This document shows positions 6,107 to 18,683 of a stretch of 64,000 bases of DNA, one piece after another (position 1 is the stretch's first letter; each line of letters begins with the position of its first letter). The DNA comes from a virus (lineage: Duplodnaviria > Caudoviricetes): positions 1 through 64,000 of IMG/VR virus record IMGVR_UViG_3300031555_000648; one strand, 5' to 3'. The notes beneath the pieces were generated by a model that saw only the letters and a program-made list of their open reading frames with translations, did not search any database and was not told where the DNA came from. The position numbers and the translations under genes are program-made.

Positions 6107-6637
6107 TTAATCACACCACAGCACTATTCTATTTTCTGCTAAAGACTTCTTCACGTCTATAACATTCTGGTTACTACTTCCTCTCCACTTGAGTTGCAGG
6201 TCTCTAAGGTCTTTCTTGTACTCCCCATCTACAAGAACATCAACAAAGTTCATGACAATCTGCTTTCTCACATAAGGAAGTGTGCCCTCTTCATAATCTC
6301 TCATGATGGTCTCATAGGTGTACCCTGTGTACAACCAAATGGTCTTGTCTGGAAACTTCTCTTTAATCTCTACACAAAGGTTATGCACCTCTACAAGATT
6401 TGTGGCAAAGAAAGGGTCACCACCAGAGAATGTGATACCACTAATGTAATCTTTGCTCAATTCATTAAATAGTTCTTCTTTGTCTTCTTCTCTAAATGGA
6501 ATACCACTTCTCTTATCCCATGTCTGTGGGTTCTGGCACTCTGGACAATGGTGTGTACAACCACTCAAAAAGAGTGTTACTCTCAATCCATCACCATTGT
6601 TCTGGTCATCTTTCTTAATGTCATGATAATGCAACAT
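6107..6637 (-). CDS. nrdG: Anaerobic ribonucleotide reductase activating enzyme (radical SAM)
   Basis: NGDGLRVTLFLSGCTHHCPECQNPQTWD, FSGGDP and WRGSSNQ motifs. Confidence 0.95.
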   Translation of the reverse strand: MLHYHDIKKDDQNNGDGLRVTLFLSGCTHHCPECQNPQTWDKRSGIPFREEDKEELFNELSKDYISGITFSGGDPFFATNLVEVHNLCVEIKEKFPDKTIWLYTGYTYETIMRDYEEGTLPYVRKQIVMNFVDVLVDGEYKKDLRDLQLKWRGSSNQNVIDVKKSLAENRIVLWCD

Positions 6638-8002: not shown

Positions 8003-10072
8003 TTAATTTACGACATTTCCATCATTTGGGTCATCAGTACTGTCTTTTCCCATGTCACCAAAAATCTTCTCAAGAATACCACCTCTTTGTGGATTAGACA
8101 CTTGAGTGGTCATTTCTTGTGTACCATCTGCTCTCATGATTTTAGTCTGTCGAATAACTTCTTGGCTTCCTGTCTCATACATTCTTTGTAACTGTGCCAT
8201 ATAACCCCATGTCTGGTTCATCATGTTAGTTACATTAGGGTCTGGGAGACCTCCCTCCATGATTTCAGTAATCATACCTCTTTGTAATCTTTGCATTGAG
8301 AAGTCAGCTATACCTTGCATTGCTTGAATAATATCACTCATATCTCTGGTGTTAAAACGCTCAAACATTTTATTGTAGGCACAAGCATAACCTGCTTTAT
8401 ACTCTGGACACTTCTGTGCATTGATACAGCTATCACAAGCCATCTTAGGGTACTTAGCACTATATAATCTCTTAGGTTTTAACACTTGCTTCTGACCTTT
8501 GATAAATCGTCCTTGTGCGTCTCTGACAGGTTCAATACCCTCTTCTCTAAATATCTCATCATCAAGGTCTGAAATCTCTGGTGCATAACTTCCATCAACA
8601 GGTGCAGGAAGATATTTGAGCATAGTGTTTTGTAAATCCATTTCAGTCACATCTGTTGTCTCATATTCTTCGTCTGTAATATAGTCATCACGTTCTTTCA
8701 CCATTCGGTCAAAATTTGTGCCAAGGACAAGAAGTTTATCATTCTTACCTAAAAGAACTTCGGTGTAGAAGTGTTTAAGGTCTGCAATTCTTTCCTCATC
8801 ATCAGCTACAATTCTGTTCACCCACATATCATGAAGACTTTTGATAAGTTCTGGCTTATAAATGTCCTCAATGATTGGTTGGTACTCATCATCTTCCCAA
8901 TTCATGAAAATGGTGAGGTCAATGATACAGTTAATAGCTGTCATCTTGTCCTCTGTGGAAATGTTAAAGGATTTTGCATAGTCCTCCCAATCTAGTTCAT
9001 TACTTGCATTTTCAATCCACAGAATACTTGGGTATTTAATGGAGTCAAGGTCTGTTTCACTTCTCTCAACACTATCTGGTCTTAGCCAATACATACGAGA
9101 TTTTAGCTTCTCCTGCACAAATTCTTCGGCTTCAATAAAAGCATGAACATTAACTCTTACCATTTCTTCTTTGTCTTCATCAAGGAGTTTTTGTTCATCA
9201 AATCCCTTTGCAACAACTTGTGGTAACATAGCACCTTTCCACTTATCTTTCTTGAGCCGAGACATTTTCTTTCCTGTCCAGAAATTGATTTCACCATACT
9301 GCAATCCAACAAGCCATGTAGTAGAGTCAACTGTGTAGAATGGTAACTTGGTTAAAAGTGCTGTCTGTGTCATTCCCATACCATGAACTAAACTCTTGTA
9401 TTTTTCTGCAACTTTTAGTTTTTCAAAACACCACTTTAATGTATCAGAACTACCTCCTGTAACTAAAGATACTCCAACATAGGGGTATCTCTGACAATAT
9501 TGTTCCCATGAAAGTTTTGGTGCTTCTTCATGGTATATGAAACACACAGGAATGCCTGTCTCTAACATAAAAGGTTCAAAGTATTTCTCATTCCAAATCT
9601 GGACTTGCTCACCACCAACAAGAATTTCAAGGTCAAGGTTAGCAATAGCAAATATTATATCACTATTTTTTCTAGCCCATTTAAGATAACCCTCAATGTG
9701 TTTCTCCCACTGCTCAATAGTGTAATCTTCATAGTTAATATCATTCATATATGTGTATGCACCAGAGTCAACAAAGAACTTTACTCCAATTTCTTTATAT
9801 CTTTGAGTACTAAGGTGCTTTCTCTGTACATAGTGGTAAGAAATAAGAAAATTTCTAATACCCATGTCATACAGAATATTAAAATTCTTTTCATCTTCTA
9901 CACCAGAAAACATCATACTAAAAGGTCTTTGTAAGTCCATAACTTCTCTAAGGTTAGAATACTTTGGCTTCTGTTGGTCTTCTTTGCTCTTATTTTGACT
10001 AAATAAGGACTTTTTCTTAATAGGTTGGGTGTTTGGCTGTTCTGCCACTTTATTCATCTTTTTCAGCTTCAT
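8003..10072 (-). CDS. DpdA-like / TGT-fold guanine transglycosylase with a long C-terminal extension carrying a 4-Cys motif
   Basis: FFVDSGAYT and VHGMG...PFYTVDSTTW motifs match the two TGT aspartate motifs; lies next to folE/queC/queD/queE; C-terminal CDSC-x5-C-x8-C. Confidence 0.75.
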   Translation of the reverse strand: MKLKKMNKVAEQPNTQPIKKKSLFSQNKSKEDQQKPKYSNLREVMDLQRPFSMMFSGVEDEKNFNILYDMGIRNFLISYHYVQRKHLSTQRYKEIGVKFFVDSGAYTYMNDINYEDYTIEQWEKHIEGYLKWARKNSDIIFAIANLDLEILVGGEQVQIWNEKYFEPFMLETGIPVCFIYHEEAPKLSWEQYCQRYPYVGVSLVTGGSSDTLKWCFEKLKVAEKYKSLVHGMGMTQTALLTKLPFYTVDSTTWLVGLQYGEINFWTGKKMSRLKKDKWKGAMLPQVVAKGFDEQKLLDEDKEEMVRVNVHAFIEAEEFVQEKLKSRMYWLRPDSVERSETDLDSIKYPSILWIENASNELDWEDYAKSFNISTEDKMTAINCIIDLTIFMNWEDDEYQPIIEDIYKPELIKSLHDMWVNRIVADDEERIADLKHFYTEVLLGKNDKLLVLGTNFDRMVKERDDYITDEEYETTDVTEMDLQNTMLKYLPAPVDGSYAPEISDLDDEIFREEGIEPVRDAQGRFIKGQKQVLKPKRLYSAKYPKMACDSCINAQKCPEYKAGYACAYNKMFERFNTRDMSDIIQAMQGIADFSMQRLQRGMITEIMEGGLPDPNVTNMMNQTWGYMAQLQRMYETGSQEVIRQTKIMRADGTQEMTTQVSNPQRGGILEKIFGDMGKDSTDDPNDGNVVN

Positions 10073-10083
10073 AGCAGGTCACC

Positions 10084-10647
10084 TCACATTCTCTCTTTGA
10101 ACTCTTTGTAAGAGTCTTCAAATCCCTTATTCACTCTTTTGTAATTTGTGTGAGTACTACAATTACTTTCAGCACCTCTACACTTTACACACTGATGTGT
10201 AGCTTCTACCTCTACAAAGATTGCGTGTGGTTCTAAAAGGTCATATAAGTACTCCCCAATCTCTTGTGTCAACTGCTCCTGCAACTGTGGCTTCTTGCTA
10301 AAATACTTCACTACTCTTGGCACTTTAGAAAGACCAATAACTTTATCACTAGGAACATATCCCACAGTAACTTTTCCAGAGAAAGGCAACCAATGGTGTT
10401 CACAGATAGAGTCAAACTCAATGTCTCTTATGATAACCATATCATTGTCATATTCATTTGGGAAAGTTTTCATGCGTGAATTTAATTCCTCAATGTTGTT
10501 ATTATTTCTGTTGGCAAAAAGTTCATTACAGTACATCTTTGCCACTCTAAGAGGTGTTCCTTTATTACTCTCTGTAATAGGAATACCCAAAATTTTCATA
10601 ATGGCTTCAATATGTTCTTTAATCTCTTCTACCTTGTTATCAATCAT
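10084..10647 (-). CDS. folE: GTP cyclohydrolase I
   Basis: SICEHHWLPF, GLSK, PQLQE and HQCVKCRG motifs; AAGGAGG RBS favours start at 10647. Confidence 0.95.
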   Translation of the reverse strand: MIDNKVEEIKEHIEAIMKILGIPITESNKGTPLRVAKMYCNELFANRNNNNIEELNSRMKTFPNEYDNDMVIIRDIEFDSICEHHWLPFSGKVTVGYVPSDKVIGLSKVPRVVKYFSKKPQLQEQLTQEIGEYLYDLLEPHAIFVEVEATHQCVKCRGAESNCSTHTNYKRVNKGFEDSYKEFKERM

Positions 10648-10681
10648 TGATAAATACCTCCTTGATTTCATTGTAATTAAG

Positions 10682-10732
10682 ATTATACCTCAAAAAAAGC
10701 ACTAGGTCAATCATGAGACTTTCCTAGTGCTT
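10682..10732 (-). terminator. Terminator hairpin (10697-10732) overlapping promoter TTGACC-17-TATAAT for folE-dpdA
   Basis: AAGCACTAGG/CCTAGTGCTT stem followed by T run. Confidence 0.75.
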
Positions 10733-10736
10733 AAGA

Positions 10737-11330
10737 TTAAAACTGCTCAAGGTGCTCCACACACTTGCACATTTCATCAAATTGTGGCTTCAAGTGTGGT
10801 GGTGTCCATGGTGAAGAAAAGCAGATAAAGATTAAATCGAACTCTCCTTGTACTTCATCAATATCTGTAGTTGTGGTATAAGGGAACTCTCCTGTCAATG
10901 CTTCTGTGTCACTGTCTTCTCTCATCACCCACTTAATATCTGCGTCTGGTTTAAGGTCTGCAAGGAAACGCAACCAATTACCACAGTCAAGGGTGTTACC
11001 ACCTGTGATGTACATATCATGGTGAAAGTCAATATTGATAATCTCTAAATCCTCATCTGGCTTCACATTGTCAAAGAACTGTGCAATCTCTCTATGGCTG
11101 TCAGCAATTAAAATCTTCCCTGCTTGTCTGCTCTTTAAGAAGTCACACATCTTGTCGTAGTTTGCAATCACACCTAAGTCTCTGATATTGTCGTGGAAGT
11201 CATATCTACTGTTCCAGATAAATTGAGTCAAGGCAGGTGAGAAGTTATCATGACCATCTGGGAAACACATTACTCTTGTGTTCATGTCAGTGTCAATAAA
11301 GTAGTCAAAGTCAATACTTAGTATTCTCAT
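10737..11330 (-). CDS. Arginase/ureohydrolase-fold metallohydrolase (UPF0489-like)
   Basis: LSIDFDYF, DSHRE, INIDFHHD, DCGNW and ICFSSPWTPP motifs. Confidence 0.75.
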   Translation of the reverse strand: MRILSIDFDYFIDTDMNTRVMCFPDGHDNFSPALTQFIWNSRYDFHDNIRDLGVIANYDKMCDFLKSRQAGKILIADSHREIAQFFDNVKPDEDLEIINIDFHHDMYITGGNTLDCGNWLRFLADLKPDADIKWVMREDSDTEALTGEFPYTTTTDIDEVQGEFDLIFICFSSPWTPPHLKPQFDEMCKCVEHLEQF

Positions 11331-11395
11331 TTTGTACCTCCAAATATTTAATTATGCAAGTATTATTATAGCACTTATATCTATAAAACACAAAA

Positions 11396-11423
11396 CACCA
11401 CAGATGACTAATCATCTGTGGTG
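11396..11423 (-). terminator. Rho-independent terminator after the 59-aa peptide gene
   Basis: Perfect 12-bp stem CACCACAGATGA/TCATCTGTGGTG, 4-nt loop, followed by TTTTGTGTTTT. Confidence 0.85.
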
Positions 11424-11452
11424 CTTGCTACTTTTTGGAGTTAAGGTTTCAA

Positions 11453-11632
11453 CTATCGTCCATTAGGTCTTACGTTGTTTACACGTCTCCCATTGATAGC
11501 TTCGATACGACCAAATACAGAAGTACCTGCTCTACGCATAACCTGACCCTCGGTCTCACCTGCTCTACGTCTAGCTCTAGGGTTCTGTCCTACAGTCTCA
11601 CGACTACCACCCTCAGCGTATGCTTTCATCAT
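11453..11632 (-). CDS. 59-aa Arg/Gly-rich peptide MMKAYAEGGSRETVGQNPRARRRAGETEGQVMRRAGTSVFGRIEAINGRRVNNVRPNGR
   Basis: Translated by hand; AAAGGAGG RBS 8 nt upstream; own promoter and terminator; missed by the 60-aa cutoff. Confidence 0.85.
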   Translation of the reverse strand: MMKAYAEGGSRETVGQNPRARRRAGETEGQVMRRAGTSVFGRIEAINGRRVNNVRPNGR

Positions 11633-11727
11633 GGCAATGTCCTCCTTTCATATTTTGCAAGAGTTCATAGAACACTAGGGAATATGAAAAAACCTATGTG
11701 TTAATCCAATTATCTTGCGTTAAGGAT

Positions 11728-11756
11728 AATATACCATACATTGTTATGGTTTTCAA
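11728..11756 (-). promoter_or_regulatory. sigmaA promoter TTGAAA-17-TATATT (extended -10) for the peptide gene; ACCATA-N6-TATGGT palindrome in the spacer
   Basis: Read directly from the minus strand. Confidence 0.7.
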
Positions 11757-11762
11757 GAGGTT

Positions 11763-13430
11763 TTAATATAAAAATGAACATTTTTTACATTCTTCACCAC
11801 ACATTTTAGAATTACAGGTGGTTGTAATTTCATTTTTACCCTTTTTGATAAGATATTCTAAACTATGGTCTCTTATGTTTCCAACAGACAGTTGGTCATA
11901 GTTTTCACTAGACACTTCGGACGCACAACCTAGTAAATAACCATCTGGTGTTACAGTAACTTGATTTGCATATCTGCTACAACAGTCCTCAAGGAAAAGG
12001 ACAAAATTATCTAACACATAGTAGTTAAAGGTAAAGTCCAATACATCTAACATGGAAGATATTTCATTATCTTCGCCTTCAAACAGAACACTTTCATATT
12101 CTATTCCGATATTGAATGAGAAATTCACATCAGTGAATTTCTTTGCAGTGTCTAACACCTGCTTGTAAACTTCAATCAAATTCTCTTTAGAGAGAAGAGG
12201 AAGAAATTCTGCATTACCTATACTTCTGATAGTCCTAATGTAGAAAGACTTTACACACGAATATCTCCAAACTAGATAAGATATAATACTTGACACCTTA
12301 TCATAATTGTTGCTGTGCAGGTCAATAAATATTTCAACATCAATTCCTAATTTATCACATACAGTAAGTGCTTTATCTGTTACTCCTTGAACACTTCTAA
12401 CTCCATTAGTCAGCATAACATCATCAACACTCAAATAAAACTTCTTTAACCCACATTCCTTTAACTCTTTTGCATACTTAGGAATGGTAATTCCATTAGT
12501 AACAATGTCAAAAGTGATAGAAAGATTATCTTCTTTTATCTTGTGTGCATACCACAGAATATCATCATTAAACATTGGCTCTTTCCCAGAGAAGTGAATG
12601 TTTGATACTCCTAACTTTTCAGCTTGGAGAATAACATTATATAATTCTTCTTTAGACAGTACAGGTGACTTAGTTTCTTCAAATCCATAGAAACAGTGTT
12701 TACACCTCAACTGACACAAATTGTTTATAAGAAGTCTTACTTCTTCAATTTTTTGATTAGCAAGAAGACTAATAAAAACAGGGTTATTATAGTCATAACC
12801 ACTCTTAACTAATGCTTTATGATGATGGTCAACTTTCAGAATACCCTCAATATATTCAAGGTCTTGACAGTCGGCACACTTACCACAAGGCTTTCCATTT
12901 ACAGGAGTATCACAACTAAAATAATCTCCAATTTCTACCCCACATTTGTTTGCAAAATAGATAAGGTTTTCTTTTTCAAAAGTGGAAAAAGGTCTTACCA
13001 CCTCAATGTTAGTGAGTGGAATAGAGAAGCTGTTTATACCATCAAAGAACTTGTCACTTGTATCTGTATATCCATGACTATTTAGAGTAGCAAGATACAC
13101 TTTGTCTGCCCCAATAGCTTCTGCATAGGAAAGTGCGTAAGACAAGAAGATTAAGTTCCTATACTCTAAATACTGCTTGTCATACACATTTGAGTCTTTT
13201 GTATAGAACTCTCTGGAAGTCCAATCAATTTTTGGCAGTGTAATTACTTTATGTGTAGCACCAACTTCTTGACTCACTTTATAAGCACACTCACACTGCT
13301 GTTGTTCATTATTTTCTCCATAACAGAAATGCAAAGAATAGATTTCATCTTCCGTTTGGGTCATGTGTAAATACTTCATAAGTACTACACTATCAAAACC
13401 ACCGCTGTTTAATACTACGATTTTTGACAT
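11763..13430 (-). CDS. queC: QueC-like domain fused to a radical SAM + SPASM/Twitch domain, 555 aa
   Basis: VLNSGGFDS, RNLIFLS and SC-x8-CGKCADC; then CQLRCKHC, FSGKEP, VTNG and CCS...VTPDGYLLGC...VGNI; AGGAGG RBS favours start at 13430 rather than 13616. Confidence 0.9.
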   Translation of the reverse strand: MSKIVVLNSGGFDSVVLMKYLHMTQTEDEIYSLHFCYGENNEQQQCECAYKVSQEVGATHKVITLPKIDWTSREFYTKDSNVYDKQYLEYRNLIFLSYALSYAEAIGADKVYLATLNSHGYTDTSDKFFDGINSFSIPLTNIEVVRPFSTFEKENLIYFANKCGVEIGDYFSCDTPVNGKPCGKCADCQDLEYIEGILKVDHHHKALVKSGYDYNNPVFISLLANQKIEEVRLLINNLCQLRCKHCFYGFEETKSPVLSKEELYNVILQAEKLGVSNIHFSGKEPMFNDDILWYAHKIKEDNLSITFDIVTNGITIPKYAKELKECGLKKFYLSVDDVMLTNGVRSVQGVTDKALTVCDKLGIDVEIFIDLHSNNYDKVSSIISYLVWRYSCVKSFYIRTIRSIGNAEFLPLLSKENLIEVYKQVLDTAKKFTDVNFSFNIGIEYESVLFEGEDNEISSMLDVLDFTFNYYVLDNFVLFLEDCCSRYANQVTVTPDGYLLGCASEVSSENYDQLSVGNIRDHSLEYLIKKGKNEITTTCNSKMCGEECKKCSFLY

Positions 13431-13500
13431 AATAAATCCTCCTATAAATAAATGGACAGGTGCTATTAGTATAACACCTGTCTCTATTGTATCATATTTC

Positions 13501-13827
13501 TTACAATCTGCCAATCGTTGCAGGGTTATCACGTCTTGGCTTAAATTGAGGTGTAACAGTAGTGTTAGGAACTGCCTGTTGGAAGCCTCTCTGTGCTGTA
13601 TTGCTAGGCACTTCATTCTTCGGTACTTTAGGTAACTTCATACCTGCGACTTTTGCAATGCTTTCAGCCTGCTTAATCTCTTCGGAAGCAATCTCTTTAG
13701 CACCAATGATTGCACCTTGGTATCTCTCTTTGTCTGCCTTAATCTGCTCTGCCTGTGCTAACACCCTAGCGTCGTCTCGCTGTCTCCACTTCTTTTCATC
13801 TTCTGACATTTTTGCATAATAACTCAT
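13501..13827 (-). CDS. Hypothetical protein, 108 aa (helical N-half, low-complexity tail)
   Basis: ORF track; GAGGT RBS. Confidence 0.75.
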   Translation of the reverse strand: MSYYAKMSEDEKKWRQRDDARVLAQAEQIKADKERYQGAIIGAKEIASEEIKQAESIAKVAGMKLPKVPKNEVPSNTAQRGFQQAVPNTTVTPQFKPRRDNPATIGRL

Positions 13828-13830
13828 GGT

Positions 13831-14472
13831 TTATACCTCTCTTTCTTTGTAAGAAAATTCTCCAAACAACTCATCTTCCCAGAGTTGTCTCTGTTTAACT
13901 GCTTCTTCAAGTGTCTTGAAGTCCTTTGTTCTTCTTATGTCTTTACACTTAATATAAGCATTAAAAGAACCATTGTGTCTAATACGAACACCTTTAGGAA
14001 GAGGTCTATCTTCATTAGGTTTCATATTACAAGAATTTTGAGACTTAGTACATTTCCTTAATTGTGCTTTTCTGTTATCATCTTTGTTATGAAATTTATG
14101 GTCTACCACATCTGAATTAGTTGCTCTCATCACTACTCTATGTAACTGTTTGTGTGGTCTACTAATACACCAATATCCATCTGCATTTTTAGTCCAAGTT
14201 CGATTAAAGGATTTCAATAATGGAATGTCCTCTACATCTACTAAAGCAAAAATGGAGTGGTCTTTGCTCCACATTTTTGCATGGTCTTCATCAAACACTT
14301 CAAATTCATTGAAGCAACCTTTTGAGCAACCACAGTGTGTCTTTCCGTTTAACTCATGAGAGGTTGCATAAAAATAATTCCCACATAATCTACAATAACA
14401 CTTATGTACTTTTGTGCCAAACTCTTTCTTTTCAATACTGACAACATCATAGTGTAAATATCTGTTTTGCAT
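13831..14472 (-). mobile_element. Free-standing HNH homing endonuclease with AP2 DNA-binding domain
   Basis: HRVVM...VVDHKFHNKDDNRKAQLR (HNH); LPKGV...AYI...FKTLEEAVKQR...LFGEF (AP2); RBS favours start at 14472. Confidence 0.9.
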
Positions 14473-14474
14473 AA

Positions 14475-14522
14475 CATTTACCTCCTTAACACTATTATAG
14501 CATAAAGAGGTAAATGACGCAA
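14475..14522 (-). promoter_or_regulatory. RBS-sequestering hairpin (14475-14484 / 14507-14516) with promoter TTGCGT-17-TATAAT whose -10 lies in the loop
   Basis: Perfect 10-bp CATTTACCTC/GAGGTAAATG. Confidence 0.75.
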
Positions 14523-14542
14523 GCAATTTTTACATTAGCAAA

Positions 14543-15181
14543 TTATCTCACACCGATTAGTTTATGGATTTGCAACTGAACCCTTACATTAAGTCTATCT
14601 TCAATAATCCAATCTACTAATTCACTCCCAATGACTGCTTTCTGGTTCTGGTCAAACATAGGACTGACTAAAATAGAAGCCTGTGTTGGGTATTTCTGTA
14701 ACACTTTCTTCATGTAGTCATAGTCTTCTCTGCTACCAATAACAAACTTCACCTCGTCATTGTTCTGTAACTTAAGCAGATTATCAAAGAGGTTCTTTTC
14801 AGAAACCCCACTGCTAGGACATTTAATGTCCATCACATACTTAAAACTGCGTCTGTACCCAAGGTCTTCAATAGGAACACACCCACTTGTCTCAATGGAC
14901 ACTTTATAACCCATGTGCATGAGTTCCCATGTAAGAGGAATGACTTCTTTGTGAATAAGTGGCTCACCACCTGTAATACACACATATTTCACACCCTTAA
15001 ACTTGAGTACTTTATTGACAATGTTCTCAACCGAAATTCTCTTCTTTTGGTCTGGCTTCTGTGGTTGGTCACAGTATGAACACCCTACAGGACACCCAAA
15101 AAGACGGACAAAGACACAGGGAAGTCCACTGTCTGAACTCTCTCCCTGTATGCTACAGAATATTTCATCATAGTACATCAT
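14543..15181 (-). CDS. queE: 7-carboxy-7-deazaguanine synthase (radical SAM)
   Basis: EIFCSIQGE...GLPCVFVRLFGCPVGCSYCD, ITGGEP and QLQIHK motifs; ATGA overlap favours start at 15181. Confidence 0.95.
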   Translation of the reverse strand: MMYYDEIFCSIQGESSDSGLPCVFVRLFGCPVGCSYCDQPQKPDQKKRISVENIVNKVLKFKGVKYVCITGGEPLIHKEVIPLTWELMHMGYKVSIETSGCVPIEDLGYRRSFKYVMDIKCPSSGVSEKNLFDNLLKLQNNDEVKFVIGSREDYDYMKKVLQKYPTQASILVSPMFDQNQKAVIGSELVDWIIEDRLNVRVQLQIHKLIGVR

Positions 15182-15345
15182 TTTCTTCGTCCACCTTTCT
15201 TTCTCAAACACTTGAGGTAATACTTTCGGTTGTATTTCTTGCTGTAACGATATTTTCCACCACCAAGGTGTTCAACATCATAATACTCACCTGTAATCTC
15301 ATAATCAAAATACTTGTAGAAAAGTGCTTTTAATTTCTTTAACAT
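15178..15345 (-). CDS. Small Lys/Tyr-rich protein, 55 aa (MLKKLKALFYKYFDYEITGEYY...)
   Basis: Translated by hand; GGAGGTG RBS; stop overlaps the queE start. Confidence 0.7.
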   Translation of the reverse strand: MLKKLKALFYKYFDYEITGEYYDVEHLGGGKYRYSKKYNRKYYLKCLRKKGGRRK

Positions 15346-15356
15346 GGTAACACCTC

Positions 15357-15824
15357 CTAAGTGGCAGGTTTCATAACAGGTTGCATAACAGGTTGGTCTG
15401 CATACTTAAGAAGTCTTTCTAAAGTACTTACTCTGTCAAGAAGACTGTCCATGACAGGGTTAAACTCTGCATAGCTTGTAGATGTCTCCCATAACTTGCA
15501 GGACACTAAGTACTTGTCCTTAGGTAATTTAGAGATAATATCTACTCCAATCTGCTTCACCATGATTTCTGCTGTTGGATTAGGGAAGTAGTCATTAAGA
15601 AAAGCATGGTCATACCTATCCACTGCTACTTCATTCACGATTTTCTTGAGGTCTTTGAAGTCTAAAATCATGCCACACTTAGGGTCAGAAGTGCTTGTCT
15701 CAATACTACCACCTACAGTCACTTCTAATTTGTAAGAATGACCATGGAGATTGTGACAAGCACCATCATAGTGTGGCAGATTATGACACGCTTCAAAACC
15801 AAATACTTTTGTTACTGTAATCAT
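15357..15824 (-). CDS. queD: 6-carboxy-5,6,7,8-tetrahydropterin synthase
   Basis: FEACHNLP...CHNLHGHSY, LDFKDLK, DHAFLN, PTAE and LWETSTS motifs. Confidence 0.95.
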   Translation of the reverse strand: MITVTKVFGFEACHNLPHYDGACHNLHGHSYKLEVTVGGSIETSTSDPKCGMILDFKDLKKIVNEVAVDRYDHAFLNDYFPNPTAEIMVKQIGVDIISKLPKDKYLVSCKLWETSTSYAEFNPVMDSLLDRVSTLERLLKYADQPVMQPVMKPAT

Positions 15825-16144: not shown

Positions 16145-18319
16145 TTACATTGATTTTCTTTCTGCGATTTCTGCCATCTTAGCTGAATTGAGACGAGTAT
16201 CACCTTTCACTCTGGAATAACTCAAGTAACCATTCATTCTGTCAATCTTAGTTAAATTAGTGCTTCCACACTTAGGGCAAACGTCCATTTCTAACTCTTC
16301 ATATCCACAGTCATCACAATATGCGAGGGAAAGATTAACACCCTCATAGAACCCCATTTTCATGGCTCTTAACACAAGTGTCTTTACTGCTTCTCTGTTA
16401 TAGTTTAATGGGTATCTAACATACTGTATTTTACCACCATTTGCTAAATCCCAAAATCTCTTCTCTTTGTCTTGCTTCTCAATCGGTGACATATCCTCTG
16501 TCACATGACAGTGGAAACTGTTACTTACATAAGGTCTGTCAGAAACGTGTTCGATAGTACCAAACTCTTTTCTGAACTGCTCGATTTGGAGACCACAGAG
16601 ATTTTCAGCAGGAGTTCCATAGATAGCATACAAATGACCATCTTCTTTTTTGAACTCACTAATCTTGTTGTTTATATATTGTAACACCTCTAACGCAAAT
16701 TGTCCATCTTCTCTTATGGACTTTTTGTTATAAAGTTCTTGGAGTTCATTCAAAGCAGTGAAACCAAAAGAAGCTGTGGCACTCTTTAAGAGTGGTTTAA
16801 TCTTCTCATTAGGCTTTAAATGACCACCATAGAAACCTCCCTCACAGTACATGACAGGATTGATACTTGCTTTCATTTCACCTAAATAATCATAGGTTCG
16901 GCAATGAATTTGACGTATCATTTCAAGGTAGTAATCTAAGACCTCATAGAAGTCTCTGTTCTCTCTTCTGGCTTTTGCTAAAATCATAGGCAGGTGTAAA
17001 GACACAGCACCTATATTAAATCGTCCTACAAATACAGGAACGTCATTCTCATCAGCAGGTTCAAAACCTCCACGCTCAAAGTAAGGTGATAAGAACGCAC
17101 GACAACCCATAGGACTGATAACTTTCTTATACTTCTTGTACATACTTGCTACATAACCATCACCTGTTAAAGACAAGTAATCTGGGTACATAGTCTTACA
17201 GCTACAGTCAATTCCTGCTTCAAACACATCATGAAGAGGTTTACCCTCACCATGCAAGTCTTCATCATACAGGAACACTAATTTAGGGAATAACACAGGC
17301 TTCTTATTACCTTTCTTACCTTGACCTGCTTTATGCACTTCAAGGAATGTAAGTGAAGCCATCTTTTCAAACACTTTTGTTCCAAGTCCGAAAGTCATGG
17401 TGATAAAAGGATAATCACCTCTGGAAGACCCTACAGTGTTGAGTTTATACTCAATACCTTGGAAACCTTGCTCATAGTCTCTCTTGACTTTCTTCATAGC
17501 TTTTCGGTCAGCTAAAAGGTCAATGATAGGCTTGAACAGTCCTTTAATGAATGTAATGTGCAACTCTTGAAGAAGCTCCATAGCGTCTTCTTGATACTCC
17601 TGCACATATCTGTCATAACTCTTCTGTGCGTAAGGTGCTAATACTTTATCAACCTCTGGCACAGTGAAACCTCCATACTGCTGTGAAGCACTTGACAGAA
17701 TAATGTCACCCATAACGTCAAATGCAGTATCAAGGCTGTTAGGTTCATTATACCAGATGTTACCCATTTCAAATCCACCACTCATAATTGTGGACATATC
17801 ACATAAGCAACAATTCATAGTGTCCAATCTGGCACTCTGGTCATGAACATAGATGTAACCCTCTTTACAGGCTTGCAACTCATCTTTGGTCATAAAGAAC
17901 TTCCTGTAGAGTCTCTTATTTAATTCATTAAACACTAAACACCTCTTAGTGGCTACAAGAGCACTGTCTGTGTTACTGTTCTCTTTATCACCGATAAATC
18001 GAATACTTTGAGACGCTTCAAACACTTTGTCCATCATGTGTACAAACTCTTGCTTGTAGTTTCTGTAGTCTCTGTAACTCTTTGCAACCTTTGGGTCAAA
18101 CTCTTCAAGAGCACCCTCTACTAAATTGTGCATGGTCTGAATACTTACTTTCTCTTCTCCGATTTCAGCAAGTTTCTGTTCTACAAAAGACACCACGTTG
18201 TTCTTATCATCTTCTGTGAGTTCAACCATCATTCTCTTTGCTGACTTACTAATGGCTGTCTTAATTTTCTCTGGATTGTAAGGGTCAAGAGTTCCATCTT
18301 TCTTAACGATTATATACAT
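16145..18319 (-). CDS. nrdD: Class III anaerobic ribonucleoside-triphosphate reductase with ATP cone
   Basis: IVKKDG ATP cone, PMGCR, YGTPAENLC, YVSNSFH, CPKCGS and RMNGYL motifs. Confidence 0.97.
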   Translation of the reverse strand: MYIIVKKDGTLDPYNPEKIKTAISKSAKRMMVELTEDDKNNVVSFVEQKLAEIGEEKVSIQTMHNLVEGALEEFDPKVAKSYRDYRNYKQEFVHMMDKVFEASQSIRFIGDKENSNTDSALVATKRCLVFNELNKRLYRKFFMTKDELQACKEGYIYVHDQSARLDTMNCCLCDMSTIMSGGFEMGNIWYNEPNSLDTAFDVMGDIILSSASQQYGGFTVPEVDKVLAPYAQKSYDRYVQEYQEDAMELLQELHITFIKGLFKPIIDLLADRKAMKKVKRDYEQGFQGIEYKLNTVGSSRGDYPFITMTFGLGTKVFEKMASLTFLEVHKAGQGKKGNKKPVLFPKLVFLYDEDLHGEGKPLHDVFEAGIDCSCKTMYPDYLSLTGDGYVASMYKKYKKVISPMGCRAFLSPYFERGGFEPADENDVPVFVGRFNIGAVSLHLPMILAKARRENRDFYEVLDYYLEMIRQIHCRTYDYLGEMKASINPVMYCEGGFYGGHLKPNEKIKPLLKSATASFGFTALNELQELYNKKSIREDGQFALEVLQYINNKISEFKKEDGHLYAIYGTPAENLCGLQIEQFRKEFGTIEHVSDRPYVSNSFHCHVTEDMSPIEKQDKEKRFWDLANGGKIQYVRYPLNYNREAVKTLVLRAMKMGFYEGVNLSLAYCDDCGYEELEMDVCPKCGSTNLTKIDRMNGYLSYSRVKGDTRLNSAKMAEIAERKSM

Positions 18320-18683
18320 TCTCTACTTTCCTCCTTTGGTTTATAACTCTACACACTAGGTTCTTAGAAGATACATAACCATAATATCTACTGTCATAGC
18401 TGTGTTCTGGATTATCACCTAAACAGAAAAAGAACCGCTTTCCGTCTCTCTTCTCAATATGGTCAATCCTTTTAATCACTATTCGATTTTCTGTTGGACT
18501 TCGATAGATGATAACATCACCTTTTTTCAGCTTGGATTTGCGGTAGATTTTTGAACCAAAGATAATCTCTTCATCAAGATATGTTGGGTACATACTGTCA
18601 CCACACACTTGAATTACAGGAAATAAGTGATACACTAGCAACCCCACAATAACTAACACAATAATAATCTTCAATAACATCAT
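18303..18683 (-). CDS. Signal peptidase I (S26)
   Basis: N-terminal TM segment; GDSMYPT (Ser), IVIKRI (Lys), GDN...SYDSRYYG. Confidence 0.9.
   Translation of the reverse strand: MMLLKIIIVLVIVGLLVYHLFPVIQVCGDSMYPTYLDEEIIFGSKIYRKSKLKKGDVIIYRSPTENRIVIKRIDHIEKRDGKRFFFCLGDNPEHSYDSRYYGYVSSKNLVCRVINQRRKVENVYNR

Follow-up and report, generated by a model that had tools for sequence, protein, structure and literature searches.

What does a small, arginine-rich peptide do beside the deazaguanine genes of a phage? The question is posed by 64,000 nucleotides of phage DNA, positions 1 to 64,000 of IMG/VR record IMGVR_UViG_3300031555_000648, a stretch referred to here as the window. In it a gene for QueC fused to a radical S-adenosylmethionine (rSAM) and SPASM domain is followed by a gene for a 59-amino-acid (aa) peptide and by another for an arginase-fold protein, ORF197. 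The whole record is a gut phage genome of 84,457 bp, estimated to be 98% complete, which has this fusion as its single QueC and has no QueF. An earlier note on this DNA described the three genes (10737-13430) as one system. All three open reading frames (ORFs) are indeed present there on the minus strand, which carries every gene in the window between 5 and 20 kb. It is proposed here, from residue covariation and a modelled fold, that the rSAM domain modifies the peptide post-translationally at a glutamate or glutamine (Glx), a proposal that is given an even chance of being right.

The evidence that carries this comes from approximately 110 loci (numbered with the prefix L), collected using as queries the fusion and the DpdA-like protein of the same cluster, the latter being unbiased as to QueC type. 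Four QueC architectures are found among them: the rSAM/SPASM fusion of 533 to 571 aa, QueC alone at about 200 aa, a separate lineage of 242 to 267 aa, and a form of about 446 aa with another domain. Most of the peptides begin M-x-K-[AV]-[YFH]-A and go on with a stretch rich in Gly. Of the 24 distinct peptides encoded beside a fusion, 23 have Glu or Gln as the residue that follows the K-[AV]-[YFH]-A motif. Beside the other QueC types this is so in just 1 of 36, the rest having Gly, Ser, Thr, Lys, His, Val or Ile. The distribution of the rSAM domain requires at least six changes on the DpdA tree. Across six independent pairs differing in rSAM, Glu/Gln changes in the same direction in 5.6 on average and never in the opposite one, giving a sign test p of ~0.03 that is based on these six pairs and a quick tree with long branches.

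Fusion and stand-alone forms occur as sisters in the QueC-domain tree, L004 (fusion) with L019 (stand-alone) at a Shimodaira-Hasegawa-like approximate likelihood ratio value (SH-aLRT) of 99, and L007 with L063 at 96. The sister peptides keep traits of their own lineage, such as a C-terminal N-P-R-A or V-H-A, and the window and L011 share the N-terminal M-M-K-A-Y-A. These relationships and traits rule out the co-transfer of two adjacent genes and indicate that the rSAM domain was gained or lost in place, the Glx changing with it. Adjacent and co-varying, the fusion and peptide stand to one another as do the maturase and precursor of a peptide that is ribosomally synthesised and then modified post-translationally (RiPP).

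One further gene goes with the rSAM domain. About eight rSAM lineages have, between FolE and DpdA, a flavodoxin-like flavin mononucleotide (FMN) reductase gene (PF03358/PF02525). Positions of this gene are L002 10726-11292, L004 8495-9016, L042 7453-7992, L077 7334-7858, L080 5330-5833, L107 7044-7583 and L108 6885-7424. It is found in no locus known to be without rSAM, with two more hits on contigs too short to show QueC, and is absent from the window. The fixed unit in these phages is QueC with the peptide; the co-varying unit is rSAM, the peptide Glx and, often, the FMN reductase, and to these the arginase-like gene is accessory.

The fusion (11763-13430, minus strand) has 555 aa, starting at the Met at 13430. 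In keeping with the domains read by the earlier note, Pfam matches QueC (PF06508) at residues 3-189 (E 5.5e-28) and Radical_SAM (PF04055) at residues 236-338 (E 1.6e-16), and SPASM (PF13186) at residues 484-551 scores 20.3 bits, just short of the cut-off of 21.5. The S-G-G-F-D-S motif of QueC and its zinc cysteines C173, C182, C185 and C188, forming the canonical C(x)8CxxCxxC site, are invariant in 35 homologues, as are the rSAM motifs CX3CX2C (C239, C243, C246), G-K-E-P and T-N-G. The reference pattern for SPASM is CX9-15GX4C ... CX2CX5CX3C ... C, with seven Cys and two auxiliary clusters. C484-x12-G-x4-C502 is present in the fusion, and the invariant C-terminal Cys are C484, C502 and C551 only. 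A refined QueC signature has been published, comprising YxQxHxxE, VPxRN and YPDC, with a Tyr that follows the first Cys of the zinc site and is essential in the E. coli enzyme (Y189; Y189A is inactive) (PMC13082051). The QueC domain of the fusion departs from this signature. Tyr, R-N and Y-x-D are retained, the Q and H of the first motif vary, YPDC has Thr in place of its Cys, and the first zinc Cys is followed by Asp rather than by the canonical Tyr. Asp or Asn is found at this last position in three QueC types, namely the fusion and the forms of 200 aa and 446 aa.

The AlphaFold model of the rSAM part (residues 190-555) has a pLDDT of 85.8. Its closest folds are PqqE (Z 21.7), SkfB (20.9), SuiB (20.7), anSME (19.1) and TigE (18.7), followed by MoaA (18.4) and then by BlsE, DesII and viperins; the fold fits both SPASM and twitch enzymes. 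The best matches, at Z 20-22, are to enzymes such as PqqE/PqqA, SuiB/SuiA, SkfB and the triceptide synthases, which, like the fusion with its putative one, have a short precursor encoded beside them. The earlier suggestion that the rSAM enzyme works with the peptide gains from both results: the peptide Glu/Gln tracks rSAM over independent contrasts, and the neighbours of the rSAM fold are peptide maturases. A functional coupling of the rSAM/SPASM domain and the peptide is supported by these sequence comparisons.

The substrate, the reaction and the role of QueC might then be as follows. FolE, QueD and QueE would make 7-carboxy-7-deazaguanine (CDG), with QueC and the DpdA-like transglycosylase completing the set. 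Directly following the fusion is the peptide gene, with strong predicted expression signals, whose product belongs to a family that is a standing partner of QueC across the clade. The rSAM domain would act on this peptide, and the site modified would be the Glu/Gln that comes after the K-[AV]-[YFH]-A of the N-terminus. The likeliest reaction would be a radical C-C cross-link from the Glx to the aromatic residue two positions upstream, like that of PqqE or a three-residue cyclophane. The constrained site, aromatic-X-Glx, recalls the Glu-Tyr cross-link made by PqqE and the aromatic-X-X motifs of three-residue cyclophanes. The fused QueC domain may dock the peptide, taking the part of a RiPP recognition element, and it may also ligate CDG to the peptide in the manner of Cap9 and QatC. 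In those rSAM loci that have it, the FMN reductase would be the reductant, and ORF197, an optional accessory, may trim Arg on the same peptide.

Several observations weigh against modification of the peptide by the rSAM domain. The covariation has two exceptions, the residue being Gly beside the fusion of L071 and Gln beside the stand-alone QueC of L069, and the sign test has the basis of six pairs and a quick tree given above. Since the peptide occurs without the rSAM domain, its primary role would seem to be other than that of an rSAM substrate. Unlike the peptide SPASM/twitch enzymes, the fusion has no evident PqqD or RiPP recognition element, is joined to QueC, has three invariant auxiliary Cys and has a SPASM match under the Pfam cut-off; compared with their precursors, the window peptide is long, basic and without Cys, and its family persists when the enzyme domain is lost. 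Sequence searches with the rSAM domain give partial matches to MoaA, PqqE and others, the best partial NCBIfam match being to MoaA. MoaA, BlsE and viperin, with nucleotide or small-molecule substrates, are within approximately 3 Z in the fold ranking and, with only three invariant auxiliary Cys, a base is a possible substrate.

The setting of the fusion and peptide can be seen from the features of the cluster, given here in window coordinates:

8003..10072, minus strand: DpdA-like DNA transglycosylase, 689 aa (phrog_887, E 4.7e-73; alignment)
10084..10671, minus strand: FolE, GTP cyclohydrolase I (PF01227, E 2.2e-49)
10737..11330, minus strand: ORF197, minimal arginase-fold (ureohydrolase) protein with peptide-arginase-type motifs; sporadic accessory
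11393..11426, minus strand: terminator-like hairpin, 15-bp stem and T-run, 3' of the peptide gene
11453..11632, minus strand: basic peptide, 59 aa, N-terminal K-A-Y-A-E motif; family trailing QueC in the clade
11633..11756, minus strand: 5' leader of the peptide gene, structured (nested helices, hairpin with U-rich loop), and its promoter-like site
11763..12755, minus strand: rSAM core (CX3CX2C at C239/C243/C246) and SPASM/twitch-like C-terminal domain (C484, C502, C551 invariant)
12864..13430, minus strand: residues 1-189 of the fusion, its QueC domain; Cys4 zinc site and PP-loop SGGFDS
13501..13827, minus strand: ORF108, small conserved protein ending N-P-A-T-I-G; its position in the cluster differs among phages
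13831..14526, minus strand: HNH homing-type endonuclease insertion (phrog_99, E 7e-24); relatives are without it or have it elsewhere
14543..15211, minus strand: QueE, CDG synthase, radical SAM (phrog_2076, E 9e-39; PF04055)
15357..15824, minus strand: QueD, 6-carboxytetrahydropterin (CPH4) synthase (PF01242, E 1.7e-28)

A DpdA-type TGT homologue is clustered here with FolE, QueD, QueE and QueC, the combination by which phage deazaguanine DNA-modification clusters are recognised. Its gene content makes the region 8003-15824 a BCD7-type phage module for the 7-deazaguanine modification of DNA. The earlier note had placed FolE and the DpdA-like gene on one flank of the three genes, as is the case, and QueE and QueD on the other, where they do lie; QueE does not adjoin the fusion, because ORF108 and the HNH endonuclease are between them. 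The nearest cultured member of the clade is Bacillus cereus phage BCD7, whose genes have been listed as DpdA, FolE, QueD, QueE and QueC (Hutinet et al. 2019, PMC6884629). The DpdA-like protein of the window is 42.5% identical to BCD7 gp021, the DpdA of that list, and the S26 peptidase, SpoVS, QueD, QueE, QueC, peptides, FolE and DpdA are syntenic between BCD7 and the window. The gene order common to the loci is PDDEXK nuclease, S26 peptidase, SpoVS, QueD, QueE, QueC, small ORF(s), FolE and DpdA. Published phage DpdA/preQ0 clusters likewise have FolE, QueD, QueE, QueC and a DpdA-type transglycosylase together (PMC6884629; Cui et al. 2023, PMC10516641), but none was found described with a QueC fused to rSAM/SPASM as in the window. 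The context in Bacteroides phage BS162P1 is uninformative.

The family of the fusion is large and uncultured. It has more than 120 cluster representatives, with 38-83% identity, on metagenomic contigs of 70-90 kb, labelled in their sources merely as 7-cyano-7-deazaguanine synthase. A profile search of 1.8 billion representatives gave approximately 75 fused clusters, together with stand-alone rSAM relatives of 355-412 aa; in L110 a stand-alone rSAM homologue lies between FolE and a DpdA-like gene. The fused form was not found among GenBank phages, a set from which the window's own record may be missing, and no description of a QueC with a SPASM or radical SAM fusion was found in the literature searched. 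This suggests that the fusion and the peptide family, in that literature, are undescribed.

The peptide (11453-11632) has 59 aa of which 12 are Arg, exactly as first reported. Its gene has the ribosome-binding site AAGGAGG 8 nt upstream, a promoter-like TTGAAA-17-TGnTATATT with extended -10 at 11756-11728, and the 15 bp terminator-like hairpin with its T-run at 11426-11393. Compared with L105, an 83% relative, the differences fall at the three codon positions as 7/7/19; of the codon changes 15 are synonymous and 9 non-synonymous, and this third-position excess indicates that the ORF evolves as coding sequence. A tRNA or known RNA beneath the ORF was looked for and not found, there being no tRNA or Rfam match in the region. 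There is no second copy in the window; tandem duplicates are present in several lineages.

Wherever a peptide is recognisable, the locus has from one to three small, basic ORFs rich in Gly, Arg, Asn and Ser that start 89 to 178 nt past the QueC stop (median 129). This adjacency spans the four QueC architectures, including QueC without rSAM, and BCD7 gp024/gp023. The peptide is therefore tied to QueC and not to rSAM specifically. ORF108, the HNH gene, ORF197 and the FMN-reductase gene come, go or move while the QueC-peptide pair stays. The point of the cluster at which HNH genes have inserted varies from phage to phage (window 13831-14526; L015/L024 5412-5810; L042 6207-6866), which indicates frequent local rearrangement around the stable pair. 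The peptide family, which includes BCD7 gp023 and gp024, is present in almost every phage of the clade, with sizes of 40-90 aa. Four lineages have leaderless peptides, whose first residues are M-A, M-S or M-P. Near the C-terminus a short R-N-x-V-N-R-type motif recurs, and no Arg position is conserved in the family. A profile search with the family gave merely 14 hits, none of them named, so it appears too divergent for sequence search. The conserved peptide genes of BCD7 are not discussed in PMC6884629 or PMC10516641, and the family was not found in the literature searched, where a search on BCD7 with deazaguanine brought up nothing relevant. Contigs of a relative in a metatranscriptome run, which cannot show expression, span FolE, ORF197, ORF108 and QueE and not the peptide.

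The 5' leader of the peptide gene (window 11633-11725, minus strand) folds into nested helices with an inner hairpin of 6-9 bp and a U-rich loop of 11-15 nt, often ending (C/G)-A-U-A-U-U-C. Such a fold is also present upstream of the peptide ATG in L001, L006, L011-L013, L049, L053, L069 and L105-L108. The stems vary by locus with compensatory changes (ACAC-TAGG/CCTA-GTGT versus GCAG-TAG/CTA-CTGC and GGTGGG/CCTACC). The hairpins were judged sequence by sequence; RNAalifold gave no consensus over 19 leaders because distant leaders were poorly aligned by MAFFT, and the leader has no Rfam match. By its sequence the leader may be a cis-regulatory RNA, perhaps bound by the Arg-rich peptide itself.

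Other genes of the cluster also vary. In one subclade, made up of L017 (4021-5364), L018, L070, L072, L074-L076 and L087, QueC is fused to an unrelated C-terminal domain of approximately 240 aa with no Pfam match, and loci with this QueC of about 446 aa have two or three tandem peptide genes with starts M-K-V-F-A-[TVI]. Two more families of small conserved ORFs are found in the cluster (window ORF108; L107 6267-6485 and 6088-6255; and the gap between peptide and FolE in L006, L007, L028 and L041). One has a D-W-E-T-R-E-D-A-type helix and a C-terminal R-R-x-N-P-A-T-I-G; the other has N-K-A-T-x-G and ends Y-x-K-K-x-K. ORF108 precedes QueC in the window and follows the peptide in other phages. 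The DpdA-like protein has a TGT-like N-terminal half with a conserved DSGA motif in the alignment. It is about twice the usual size, and its C-terminal half has a conserved C-D-x-C ... C-P ... C motif (Cys4 region); its weak PHROG match (E 2.4e-5), to a terminase small subunit, suggests that a module for binding DNA has been added. The S26 signal-peptidase-I homologue (window 18303-18683) is membrane-anchored, with 126 aa and the catalytic motif G-D-S-M-Y-P-T. It is a core gene of the entire clade and adjoins SpoVS and the deazaguanine genes. As the protease for the peptide leader it was considered and rejected, since the [AV]-x-A sequence fits the -3/-1 rule but the peptidase has an N-terminal membrane helix and is present in leaderless loci. 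The anaerobic ribonucleotide reductase NrdD (window 16145-18319) is inserted between the S26 peptidase and SpoVS, likewise in L013-L015 and L108, and an NrdG-like activase is nearby (window 6107-6637). Together with strong Shine-Dalgarno sites, these two genes fit an anaerobic Firmicutes host.

A QueC-family enzyme that acts on a protein has precedent in antiphage defence. Cap9 of type IV CBASS (cyclic oligonucleotide-based antiphage signalling system) and QatC attach CDG to a partner with a Gly/Ser-rich tail, at its N-terminal amine, and the TGT-like Cap10 binds the product (bioRxiv 10.1101/2025.04.06.647259; PMC13279940). The window resembles Cap9/Cap10 and QatC/QatB in encoding together enzymes of the QueC and TGT families and a protein partner whose N-terminal region is flexible and rich in Gly/Ser. 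At the position that follows the first zinc Cys, Cap9 has Glu and most QueC types of this clade have Asp/Asn, whereas canonical QueC has its essential Tyr. The window differs from these defence systems in being a phage module with the full CDG pathway, a DNA-type DpdA and a free peptide partner of 40-90 aa. The Cap9/Cap10 partner also has the N-terminus M(G/S)G(G/S)GG, which is exposed by Met removal, while here there is mostly a motif of 5-10 residues before the Gly-rich part. The parallel between the two sets of QueC, TGT and peptide is suggestive only, and by this analogy a QueC-mediated deazaguanylation of the peptide is possible.

ORF197 had been described as a UPF0489-like arginase-fold enzyme. 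The fold and metal motifs are borne out; membership of PF12640 is not by hidden Markov model, as ORF197 has no Pfam match, nor any PHROG or NCBIfam match, even at E 10. The metal ligands D7, D9, H79, D101, H103 and D105 are all kept, being invariant in 40 homologues. The AlphaFold model has a pLDDT of 93.7, and its top 19 VIA matches are all ureohydrolases at middling scores (Z 5.2-7.0), with OspR (8brp) second at Z 6.8 and a root-mean-square deviation of 3.3 Å over 121 residues. There is a PDB profile match to an arginase at E 0.03, Foldseek against the PDB finds nothing at E <= 0.001, and the ESM-Atlas neighbours are named arginase family, one neighbour cluster (score 0.87) having PF12640 in 10% of its members. 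The motifs L-D-I-D-L-D-Y-F, E-E-H and DxHxD of the UPF0489-related OspR and BipC (PMC10028609, PMC12707348) correspond to L-S-I-D-F-D-Y-F, His and D-F-H-H-D of ORF197. OspR and BipC differ in having approximately 300 aa compared to 197 in ORF197, in which the order of motifs is permuted, with DxD first, and no dimerisation domain is evident. ORF197 is, on its motifs and modelled fold, a genuine minimal arginase-fold protein, and it is probably an active peptide-arginase-like enzyme. No homologue was found among GenBank phages, in the same set as was searched for the fusion. The gene is between peptide and FolE in the window, L105 and L094, directly upstream of FolE in L054, where the contig ends before the peptide position, and downstream of DpdA in L028/L043, L038, L061 and L063, all without rSAM. 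It is absent from most fusion loci. As the gene stays near the cluster, an action on the Arg-rich peptide is plausible and would be optional.

If the rSAM domain does not act on the peptide, it may act on the base. QueC would then make preQ0 and the rSAM domain would alter the deazaguanine, free or in DNA, to give a new derivative that is inserted by DpdA or made afterwards, with the peptide an unrelated small nucleic-acid-binding or regulatory protein held nearby by synteny. Other QueC fusions do carry base-tailoring domains, for example Gat-QueC (PMC10516641). That the fusion is the sole QueC of a nearly complete genome without QueF also fits, as does the persistence of the peptide without the rSAM domain, and so does the stand-alone rSAM homologue between FolE and DpdA. 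The best NCBIfam and sequence-level PDB matches of the rSAM core are to MoaA, an enzyme of guanine nucleotides, with which it shares the number of just three auxiliary Cys. However, the top structural neighbours are peptide maturases, and tailoring of the base leaves unexplained a Glx constraint that exists only with rSAM, over at least six independent contrasts and in vertically inherited peptides. Base tailoring is considered somewhat unlikely. It is less probable still, and on balance unlikely, that the peptide is a packaged internal-head or DNA-condensing protein or an Arg-rich RNA-binding regulator of its own leader hairpin, having a propeptide or targeting tag as its N-terminal motif and linked to QueC by co-expression only. 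A very basic, low-complexity sequence with strong expression signals would suit such roles, as would the tandem duplicates, the conserved R-N-x-V-N-R-type motif and the compensatory changes in the stems of the leader; the leaderless starts M-A, M-S and M-P fit a need for a processed N-terminus. Yet the adjacency to QueC is invariant despite the rearrangements around it, and the covariation of Glx with rSAM argues for more than co-expression. No enzyme for the cleavage was identified, the nearby S26 peptidase being membrane-anchored and also present in leaderless loci.

The scheme of the earlier note, in which the arginase would convert Arg to ornithine, QueC would couple CDG to the ornithine amines and the rSAM would tailor or cleave the product, draws on the peptide-arginase-type motifs and fold of ORF197, on its position beside the Arg-rich peptide in the window, L105 and L094, and on the ability of QueC-family enzymes to ligate CDG to protein amines. 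It had expected the three genes to occur together in related phages. The link of peptide to QueC is found throughout, but the peptide is present regardless of rSAM and ORF197 is sporadic, adjoining the fusion in about 2-3 of 18 fusion lineages and occurring at another position in four lineages without rSAM. A fixed triad can thus be set aside. With no conserved Arg in the peptide family, in which the constrained residue is instead a Glx close to the N-terminus, and with known deazaguanylation directed to the N-terminal amine rather than to side chains, this scheme is very unlikely. A further arrangement, thought quite unlikely on present sequences, is that QueC ligates CDG to the peptide and the DpdA-like enzyme exchanges guanine in DNA for the peptide-bearing base, with the rSAM domain (at Glx) and the arginase-like protein (at Arg) tailoring the peptide in lineage-specific steps, before or after it is tethered. 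If true, cationic peptides would be covalently tethered in the DNA major groove.

The 7-deazaguanine modifications of phage DNA are a main escape route from restriction and CRISPR. To our knowledge, small-molecule enzymology accounts for all eight known 7-deazaguanine derivatives. In a whole phage clade QueC has a ribosomal peptide as its obligate neighbour, and a peptide-type rSAM domain co-evolves with one residue of it; each of these points to a step in the pathway that depends on a peptide and is undescribed. With Bacillus cereus phage BCD7 the family has a cultured and tractable member, so the question can be tested directly. Such a step may be the phage-side counterpart of the protein deazaguanylation used in CBASS and Qat defence.

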